NCBI RefSeq assembly: GCF_056712565.1 | Contig: NZ_CM160072.1 | Length of the DNA stretch: 64,000 bases | Direction: 5' to 3' (one strand) | Shown: in pieces, positions 46,781 to 49,359 of the stretch | Numbering within the stretch: the first letter of the stretch is position 1 | Layout: every line of letters begins with the position of its first letter | Made by a program: the position numbers and the translations under genes | The notes under the pieces: model-generated | The model's database searches: none | What the model saw: the letters and a program-made list of their open reading frames with translations, nothing else | What the model was told of the DNA's origin: nothing

Positions 46781-46857
46781 TATCCAGGCCGGTAGATTCA
46801 CGGAAGACCGTTCCGCGATCGCCGGCCTTTTCTTTTTTACCTGCTGAGGCGTAACGT

Positions 46858-47835
46858 ATGGCATGTGGCGAGTTCTCCCTGATTGCCCGTTATTTTGACC
46901 GTGTAAGAAGTTCTCGTCTTGATGTCGAACTGGGCATCGGCGACGATTGCGCTCTTCTCAATATCCCCGAGAAACAGACCCTGGCGATCAGCACTGATAC
47001 GCTGGTGGCGGGCAACCACTTCCTCCCTGATATCGATCCTGCTGATCTGGCTTATAAAGCACTGGCGGTGAACCTAAGCGATCTGGCAGCGATGGGGGCC
47101 GATCCGGCCTGGCTGACGCTGGCATTAACCTTACCGGACGTAGACGAAGCGTGGCTTGAGTCCTTCAGCGACAGCTTGTTTGATCTTCTCAATTATTACG
47201 ATATGCAACTCATTGGCGGCGATACCACGCGTGGGCCATTATCAATGACGTTGGGTATCCACGGCTTTGTTCCGATGGGACGAGCCTTAACGCGCTCTGG
47301 GGCGAAACCGGGTGACTGGATCTATGTGACCGGTACACCGGGCGATAGCGCTGCCGGGCTGGCGATTTTGCAAAACCGTTTGCAGGTTGCCGATGCTAAA
47401 GATGCGGACTACTTGATCAAACGTCATCTCCGTCCGTCGCCGCGTATTTTACAGGGGCAGGCACTGCGCGATCTGGCAAATTCAGCTATCGATCTCTCTG
47501 ACGGTCTGATTTCCGATCTCGGGCATATCGTGAAAGCCAGCGACTGCGGCGCACGTATTGACCTGGCATTGCTGCCGTTTTCTGATGCGCTTTCTCGCCA
47601 TGTTGAACCGGAACAGGCGCTGCGCTGGGCGCTCTCTGGCGGTGAAGATTACGAGTTGTGTTTCACGGTGCCGGAACTGAACCGTGGCGCGCTGGATGTG
47701 GCTCTCGGACACCTGGGCGTACCGTTTACCTGTATCGGGCAAATGACCGCCGATATCGAAGGGCTTTGTTTTATTCGTGACGGCGAACCTGTCACGTTAG
47801 ACTGGAAAGGATATGACCATTTTGCCACGCCATAA
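46858..47835 (+). CDS. thiL: thiamine-monophosphate kinase
   Basis: 325 aa; [34 protein letters not shown]... Confidence 0.94.
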
Positions 47836-48331
47836 AGATGTCGCGAAAAGTCGCCTGAAAATGAGTAATCCGTGGCATCTGCTTGCTGTCGGATTCGGAA
47901 GTGGATTAAGCCCGATCGTTCCTGGCACGATGGGGTCGCTGGCGGCGATTCCCTTCTGGTATCTGATGACTTTTTTGCCCTGGCAGCTCTATTCGCTGGT
48001 GGTAATGCTGGGGATCTGTATCGGCGTCTATCTTTGTCATCAAACGGCGAAAGACATGGGCGTGCACGATCACGGCAGTATTGTCTGGGACGAATTTATT
48101 GGTATGTGGATTACGCTCATGGCGCTGCCGACCAATGACTGGCAGTGGGTTACCGCCGGATTTGTGATTTTCCGTATTCTGGATATGTGGAAGCCGTGGC
48201 CGATCCGCTGGTTTGATCGCAATGTACATGGCGGCATGGGGATCATGATTGACGATATTGTCGCCGGGGTGATCTCCGCTGGCATCCTGTATTTTATCGG
48301 TCATCACTGGCCGCTGGGTATTCTGTCGTAG
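47813..48331 (+). CDS. pgpA: phosphatidylglycerophosphatase A
   Basis: 172 aa membrane protein; [32 protein letters not shown]...; overlaps thiL 3' end by 23 nt. Confidence 0.93.
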
Positions 48332-48340
48332 TTGTGCACC

Positions 48341-48380
48341 GATGCCTGATGTGACGCTTGTCACGTCTCATCAGGCCTGC
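48341..48380. repeat. REP element between convergent pgpA and yajO
   Basis: GATGCCTGATGTGACGCTTGTCACGTCTCATCAGGCCTGC palindrome. Confidence 0.7.
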
Positions 48381-48384
48381 ATAC

Positions 48385-49359
48385 CTATTTAAATCCTACG
48401 ACCGGATGCGGTTTATACGGCGTTTCCAGCTCGGCGATCTGTTCCGGCTTCAAGGTGATATCCACCGCGTTTAGCAGTTCATCAAGCTGTTCCTCCCGAG
48501 AAGTTCCGATAATCGGTGCGGCAATGCCCGGTTTACTCAACAACCAGGCCAGCGCAACTTGTGCTCGCGTTGCACCAAGTTCTTCACTGACGCCCGTTAA
48601 GCGTTCTACAATTTGTGCGTCATTTTCATTGCTTTCTTGGTAGAGATTTTTCCCCACTTCATCCGACACCAGCCGTGCGGTGGTTTCTCCCCAAGGACGC
48701 GTCAGACGGCCCCGCGCCAGCGGGCTCCATGGAATCACCGCTACGCCTTCCTGATAACACAGCGGCAGCATCTCGCGCTCTTCTTCACGATAAATCAGAT
48801 TGTAGTGATCCTGCATACTGACAAACTGCGCCCAGCCGTGCTGTTTTTGTAGTTCCAGTGCTTGAGCAAACTGCGAAGCGTGCATGGATGACGCGCCGAT
48901 ATAACGCGCTTTCCCGGCTTTTACCACGTCGTTCAGGGCTTCCAGCGTCTCTTCGATCGGCGTGTTGTAATCCCAGCGATGAATTTGCAGGATATCGACA
49001 TAATCCATGCCGAGACGGCGCAGGCTGTCGTCGATAGAGCGCAAAATTTGTGCACGGGATAATCCTTCCGGTAAATCACCAACGCGATGGAACACTTTGG
49101 TCGCAACGACCACGTCTTCACGACGGGCGAAATCCCGCAGTGCGCGACCGACGATCTCTTCGCTGCTGCCATCGGAATAGCTATTGGCGGTGTCAAAGAA
49201 ATTTATGCCGCCTTCCAGCGCACGTTTAATGATGGGACGGCTGCTCTCTTCCGGCAGTGTCCATGCGTGATTACCGCGATCTGGCTCGCCAAAGGTCATA
49301 CAGCCGAGGCAAAGTCGGGAAACACGAAGGTCGGTTTTTCCTAAGGGGTTGTATTGCAT
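48385..49359 (-). CDS. yajO: aldo-keto reductase YajO
   Basis: 324 aa; MQYNPLGKTDLRVSRLCLGCMTFGEPDRGNHAWTLPEESS... Confidence 0.93.
   Translation of the reverse strand: MQYNPLGKTDLRVSRLCLGCMTFGEPDRGNHAWTLPEESSRPIIKRALEGGINFFDTANSYSDGSSEEIVGRALRDFARREDVVVATKVFHRVGDLPEGLSRAQILRSIDDSLRRLGMDYVDILQIHRWDYNTPIEETLEALNDVVKAGKARYIGASSMHASQFAQALELQKQHGWAQFVSMQDHYNLIYREEEREMLPLCYQEGVAVIPWSPLARGRLTRPWGETTARLVSDEVGKNLYQESNENDAQIVERLTGVSEELGATRAQVALAWLLSKPGIAAPIIGTSREEQLDELLNAVDITLKPEQIAELETPYKPHPVVGFK

Follow-up and report, generated by a model that had tools for sequence, protein, structure and literature searches.

Overlap of thiL and pgpA in Escherichia coli, with a conserved Shine-Dalgarno sequence inside thiL and a TTG codon as candidate start of pgpA

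Out-of-frame overlaps between genes are known from bacterial operons, among them the common -4 ('ATGA') and -1 ('TAATG/TGATG') arrangements and the rarer overlaps of -8, -11 and -14 nucleotides (nt). Coupling of translation is most efficient at stop-start spacings of -4 to +3 nt and is reduced more by a longer overlap than by a longer separation; one systematic study found no coupling at -25 nt (as reported in a 2025 review, PMC12548453). In the literature, ribE-nusB-thiL-pgpA is described as a four-gene operon with thiL and pgpA adjoining at its end (PMC11143247), and the same thiL-pgpA neighbourhood has been reported in Acinetobacter. The overlap between the two genes is already known, both from the RefSeq annotation and from a 2024 study in which the pgpA mutant was rebuilt because the Keio deletion of pgpA takes out 20 nt of thiL (PMC11143247).

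We analyzed the thiL-pgpA junction of E. coli in a window of 64,000 nt (RefSeq assembly GCF_056712565.1, contig NZ_CM160072.1). The features discussed below are listed in Table 1. The locus shows the same feature as the published ribE-nusB-thiL-pgpA operon, without difference. The genes follow one another on the same strand in the order nrdR-ribD-ribH (=ribE)-nusB-thiL-pgpA in RefSeq, which agrees with the initial annotation in placing the overlap at the end of this gene string. Both genes of the pair are genuine protein-coding genes, and each product is a full-length member of its family. In profile searches, ThiL matched NF004350 with 647 bits over residues 1-324 of 325, above the curated cut-off, as well as TIGR01379 and the Pfam families AIRS and AIRS_C. 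PgpA matched PF04608 with 157.6 bits (residues 24-161; Pfam search) and NF008288 with 330.6 bits (residues 7-170; NCBIfam, above the curated cut-off). The thiL stop lies 3' of the annotated pgpA start, the shared letters are ATGACCATTTTGCCACGCCATAA, and the pgpA frame is +1 relative to thiL [(47813-46858) mod 3 = 1]. The overlap of 23 nt in different frames, as first described from the sequence, was thus confirmed by direct reading, by the open reading frames and by RefSeq, which gives identical coordinates for both genes. Among the other junctions of the string, the end of nrdR (44675) and the GTG start of ribD (44679) are 3 nt apart, and this gap falls in the range reported to be efficient for translational coupling, unlike the thiL-pgpA junction; the remaining spacings are +88 (ribD-ribH), +19 (ribH-nusB) and +77 nt (nusB-thiL). 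An Rfam scan of both strands of the whole window returned no family at gathering score.

Table 1. Positions of the thiL-pgpA features in the window
Feature	Position	Strand	Content or evidence
thiL (thiamine-phosphate kinase), coding sequence	46858..47835	+	325 aa; ORF, NF004350, TIGR01379, RefSeq
pgpA (phosphatidylglycerophosphatase A), coding sequence as annotated	47813..48331	+	172 aa; ORF, PF04608, NF008288, RefSeq
thiL/pgpA overlap, 23 nt	47813..47835	+	direct sequence reading
thiL stop TAA	47833..47835	+	sequence, ORF
In-frame TAG closing the pgpA frame 5'	47798..47800	+	sequence
AAGGA, Shine-Dalgarno-like site	47807..47811	+	ThiL Lys-Gly codons AAA GGA; duplex energy
ATG1, annotated pgpA start, 23-nt overlap	47813..47815	+	ThiL Tyr TAT and G of Asp
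TTG4, candidate pgpA start, 14-nt overlap, 169-aa product	47822..47824	+	ThiL Phe TTT and G of the next codon
pgpA codons 8-16, KDVAKSRLK, conserved N-terminal peptide upstream of M17	47834..47860	+	80-species alignment
ATG17 (M17), downstream in-frame ATG	47861..47863	+	rejected as start
60-nt junction block, near-invariant in E. coli	47798..47857	+	exact match in 5375/5424 genomes

Like the overlaps known from operons, the thiL-pgpA overlap is co-directional, and the pgpA start and its Shine-Dalgarno (SD) sequence sit within the coding sequence of the upstream gene. It differs from the classes for which efficient termination-reinitiation has been shown in being longer, 14 or 23 nt, and from the usual operon overlaps in covering a conserved motif, K-G-Y-D-H-F of ThiL. 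Because of this motif, the SD sequence and start of pgpA are written in synonymous sites of ThiL, and the third position of a thiL codon in the overlap is silent for ThiL yet decisive for the signals of pgpA.

Where a long overlap is annotated, the start codon is often mispredicted, and in one rival explanation there is no true overlap: pgpA would start at the in-frame ATG that E. coli carries at 47861 (M17), 25 nt past the thiL stop, and its first 16 codons would be an artefact of choosing the longest reading frame. That the Pfam domain begins only at residue 24 is in line with this explanation. It was weighed against a comparison of the junction in 80 species-representative genomes, nearly all of Enterobacteriaceae and including two Serratia. 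Codons 9-16 of pgpA, which lie wholly 3' of the thiL stop, encode D-[V/I]-A-K-S-R-L-x in these species; D9, A11, R14 and L15 are invariant, each with two to six synonymous codons, and the columns have a mean entropy of 0.27, 0.21 and 1.24 bits for the first, second and third codon position, respectively. This pattern marks codons 9-16 as coding in the frame of pgpA. Codon 17, on the other hand, is a non-start leucine codon (CTG, CTC, TTA, CTA or CTT) in 34 of the 80 species and has no SD sequence upstream (median duplex energy across species of -0.1 kcal/mol). In addition, the NCBIfam equivalog profile begins at residue 7 of E. coli PgpA and the Serratia proteins begin at the equivalent of residue 8. 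A start at M17 was ruled out by the constraint on codons 9-16, the non-start codon 17 and the missing SD sequence, and the explanation built on it is highly improbable. A GTG at codon 10, present in 27 of the 80 relatives, is inapplicable to E. coli, which has GTC at this position.

Upstream, the in-frame TAG at 47798 makes a start 5' of 47813 impossible in E. coli, and the earliest start codon in the list of open reading frames is ATG 47813. Between this TAG and codon 9 the only canonical starts are ATG 47813 (codon 1, ATG1) and TTG 47822 (codon 4, TTG4). Since conserved pgpA coding reaches the thiL stop and the only canonical starts lie inside thiL, the overlap is forced, and by this comparison the start of pgpA must lie within the 3' end of thiL, at or before 47834. 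This was also the claim of the initial annotation, and the constraint on codons 9-16 together with the non-start codon 17 bears it out. Initiation at a downstream codon had been named there as the finding that would speak against it: M17 fails as such a codon, and TTG4 is strictly downstream of the annotated start but still inside thiL.

To separate the two codons, the thiL codon alignment of 79 species was combined with a neighbour-joining tree of thiL itself, and parsimony (Fitch) changes were counted at synonymous sites. As background, 41 conserved two-fold (C/T-ending) columns of thiL showed 2-20 changes each, mostly 8-15. ATG1 was present in 43 and absent in 36 of the 79 species and was gained or lost 12 times, a neutral synonymous rate, and the tyrosine codon behind it (TAT vs TAC) changed 14 times on the tree. 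The share of TAT at this tyrosine was 0.58 (in the 74 species with tyrosine there), compared to 0.56 for the other tyrosine codons of thiL, and ATG1 flips between close relatives, as between Klebsiella oxytoca and K. michiganensis with K. grimontii, and also within Buttiauxella. The presence of ATG1 is not by itself more than expected by chance, and the codon may behave as a neutral by-product of the Tyr-Asp codons of ThiL.

These counts speak against the explanation that follows the existing annotation, in which ATG1 is the main start of pgpA in E. coli, with an overlap of 23 nt, and translation of pgpA is coupled with that of thiL, either because ribosomes ending at TAA 47833 reinitiate upstream or because ribosomes translating thiL keep the site open. 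We consider this explanation possible, at rather less than even odds. Besides the RefSeq annotation, it has in its favour that ATG1 is the first and strongest start codon of the reading frame and that none of the 20 species of Escherichia, Salmonella and Citrobacter lacks it; since 19% of neutral sites of the same kind are likewise unchanged in this clade, the retention is weak evidence. The only properly spaced SD sequence of ATG1 is a weak UGGA (-3.3 kcal/mol) located 6 nt upstream in A-rich surroundings. An upstream TGG (Trp) codon, the source of a weak but well-spaced GGA, accompanies ATG1 in 36 of the 43 species that carry ATG1 and occurs in 11 of the 36 that do not, an association that is uncorrected for phylogeny. 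Furthermore, four species without TTG4 (in Franconibacter, Siccibacter and Entomohabitans) keep ATG1, and ATG1 is therefore presumably workable in this context.

TTG4 shows a different pattern. It was found in 73 of the 79 species with two Fitch changes, so that the third position of its ThiL phenylalanine codon is tied for the lowest number of changes among the 41 two-fold synonymous columns, and TTT makes up 0.92 of the codons at this phenylalanine vs 0.67 elsewhere in thiL. In five species TTG4 is the sole canonical start before the Pfam domain, and in Pantoea and Erwinia gene calls and NCBI proteins begin at its equivalent, which gives a 14-nt overlap. As a start codon, UUG is much weaker than AUG, and TTG could in part be conserved because species that initiate at ATG1 need leucine at this position.

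The only SD-like site at the junction is the strongly conserved sequence AAGGA, located 1 nt before ATG1 and 10 nt before TTG4. A gap of 1 nt is too short for an SD sequence to serve the start that follows, and the proximity of this strong site thus counts against ATG1. The predicted duplex of AAGGA with the anti-SD sequence has an energy of -5.4 kcal/mol, and no other site at the junction lies below -3.3 kcal/mol. GGA, a rare glycine codon, is used at the glycine of this site in 72% of the species vs 8% elsewhere in thiL, and GGA or GGG in 92% vs 26%, which places the column at the top of 27 conserved glycine columns. Across the 80 species, GGR always occurs together with TTT at the phenylalanine of TTG4 (74:0) and GGY always with TTC (0:6). 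All six TTC species have GGC or GGT; four of them keep ATG1 and the other two are Serratia. The spacer between the SD sequence and TTG4 is 9-10 nt in all 74 species that carry TTG4, within the 4-12 nt expected for SD-led initiation, and the cross-species medians for a properly spaced SD sequence are -5.1 kcal/mol for TTG4 and -3.3 kcal/mol for ATG1 vs the value given above for codon 17. If ATG1 were the start, the conserved synonymous sites in GGA and TTT would be without a role unless Leu4 is essential. The overlap being known, the only mildly new point of this analysis is that AAGGA and TTG4 together are, by their pattern across species, the conserved module of the junction.

Constraint at the junction was also seen within E. 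coli. Of 5426 complete E. coli genomes, 5424 contained the 1.6-kb thiL-pgpA region, which is 100% identical to that of E. coli ATCC 11775 and others, and two were without a match; the E. coli matches to region 46800-48400 number 5427, and one of them sits on a record classed as plasmid. The 60-nt junction block was identical in 99% of the 5424 genomes vs at most 61% for two control 60-mers, one in thiL (exact match in 3303 of 5412 genomes) and one in pgpA (1088 genomes). The sequence of E. coli K-12 departs from that of the window at 47793, 47796 and 47860 and at no position between these last two. There is extra constraint at the thiL-pgpA junction within E. coli, and both starts are compatible with it. 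Haplotypes that would destroy one start, T47814C for ATG1 and T47823C for TTG4, were absent among about 5,400 E. coli genomes, and because neither occurs, the population data do not separate the two codons.

Start-site profiling had been suggested by the initial annotation as a check of the pgpA start. [quoted passage not shown] Of the annotated starts, about 70% were detected in vitro by INRI-seq, and the template pool was well supplied with pgpA (57.6 CPM). In INRI-seq Supplementary Table S2, the signal at the annotated pgpA start is zero in all five in-vitro replicates, and as far as the Ribo-RET data of Meydan et al. are tabulated with INRI-seq, no peak is given at this position either. 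To this extent the tabulated data argue against ATG1. The absence of in-vitro initiation on an isolated pgpA leader is, at the same time, compatible with some dependence on thiL translation, as the explanation with ATG1 would have it. An alternative start was not called either, pgpA being absent from the INRI-seq table of newly called starts, and the tabulated profiling supports neither ATG1 nor TTG4. Neither pgpA nor thiL is entered in the TetRP supplements (PMC4909307), the sole match in the TRAINSPOTTER N-terminomics data is a false one to 'PGPase', and pgpA is not among the entries of Giess 2017, Stringer 2021 and the Salmonella riboproteogenomics paper.

The initial annotation had further taken the overlap to imply coupled translation. 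This does not follow, as reported coupling falls steeply at such overlap lengths; the spacing of -14 or -23 nt is outside the range of efficient coupling, and the little or no coupling reported near an overlap of -25 nt (PMC12548453) counts in particular against the 23-nt overlap of ATG1. A basis for coupling in the unfolding of RNA was likewise rejected, as no stable structure over the ribosome-binding site was predicted: the minimum free energy of region 47760-47880 was -30.9 kcal/mol vs a mean of -28.3 kcal/mol for shuffled sequences (z = -0.69, not significant), and the SD and start region was largely unpaired in the predicted fold. The explanation with ATG1 thus lacks a predicted inhibitory structure that ribosomes translating thiL would need to unfold. 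A simple consensus scan detected no promoter inside thiL and no terminator between thiL and pgpA. The strong conservation of the SD sequence suggests that pgpA relies on a ribosome-binding site of its own, and coupled translation of thiL and pgpA remains plausible.

The geometry of the junction varies by lineage, with stop-start spacings of -1, +2, -14, -17, -20 and -23 nt among the relatives sampled. A relative with 61% identity has a spacing of -1 (TGATG), one with 52% identity +2, another -17 and Dickeya -20, and a spacing of -14 is found in Pantoea and Erwinia as well as in a genome whose thiL is fragmented. Adjacency of thiL and pgpA is widespread, and this variation is the ordinary evolution of a close gene pair. 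Serratia liquefaciens and S. proteamaculans are without ATG1 and TTG4; in these two species a single base separates the thiL stop from an ATG (TAACATG) that corresponds in position to Lys8 of E. coli, and the genes do not overlap, and some Serratia protein records start upstream instead ('MTIS...'). In the genome with the fragmented thiL (GCA_030370565.1, JANUQU010000025.1, 300-1995), nusB and thiL are split into open reading frames of 62, 51 and 132 aa and adjoin an IS66 transposase. Its pgpA is still called, with a TTG start, an AAAGGA SD sequence and a 14-nt overlap; the N-terminal PgpA motif is disrupted (NPGIYW for NPWHLL), so pgpA may be decaying too. An assembly labelled 'Chryseobacterium sp. 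18061' (CACSKA010000001.1) contains a thiL-pgpA pair of Enterobacteriaceae type on an 800-kb contig, with a PgpA 87% identical to that of E. coli, and is probably mislabelled or contaminated.

The overlap, the coding of codons 9-16 and the conservation of the SD sequence, TTG4 and ATG1 are seen in the sequences; from these we infer which codon E. coli ribosomes would use, as well as any coupling. We propose, with a probability of roughly 0.5, that AAGGA and TTG4 form a selected initiation signal of pgpA. In this proposal, pgpA would be translated from a start within the last codons of thiL, and selection would keep AAGGA in the Lys-Gly codons of ThiL followed by TTG 10 nt on, which would result in an overlap of 14 nt and a PgpA of 169 residues. 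ATG1 would arise automatically whenever the conserved tyrosine of ThiL is encoded by TAT, and it may also serve in E. coli, giving a form of PgpA that is three residues longer. Initiation would most likely occur via pgpA's own SD sequence, with ribosomes that either bind de novo or are captured on finishing thiL 11 nt downstream, and tight termination-reinitiation of the ATGA type would be less likely. As the main start in E. coli, TTG4 is about an even bet. Comparable use of both codons is unlikely, and a start other than ATG1, TTG4 or both is very unlikely. We also put forward, tentatively and at slightly below even odds, that the E. coli pgpA start is mis-annotated, TTG4 being the functional start driven by AAGGA and ATG1 being a neutral by-product. 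The locus would then resemble known misannotations that result from taking the longest reading frame or preferring ATG, with an annotated ATG upstream and a conserved, SD-spaced TTG 9 nt downstream. As with N-terminal proteoforms from closely spaced starts, the two candidates are in frame with each other, and gene callers in other genera choose the TTG. For pgpA, the practical stakes of choosing between ATG and TTG are only three residues at the N-terminus and an overlap that differs by 9 nt.

Published data hint that PgpA is functionally linked to thiamine metabolism. In a screen of the Keio collection with a TPP-riboswitch reporter, deletion of pgpA was the strongest 'low TPP' hit, the low TPP of the deletion persisted with thiL intact, and plasmid-borne pgpA rescued it (PMC11143247). 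Such a link could explain the conserved adjacency of thiL and pgpA.

The significance of the start site is small beyond annotation hygiene, and the overlap affects the design of knockouts. The annotated long overlap should not count as evidence of translational coupling. If TTG4 is the true start, the N-terminus of reference PgpA is three residues too long and cloning from the ATG yields constructs whose N-terminus is not the native one. The locus would be a clean small case in which the SD sequence and start codon of a downstream gene fix silent positions of the upstream gene, and part of the synonymous conservation of thiL in Enterobacterales would exist only to encode the ribosome-binding site of pgpA.
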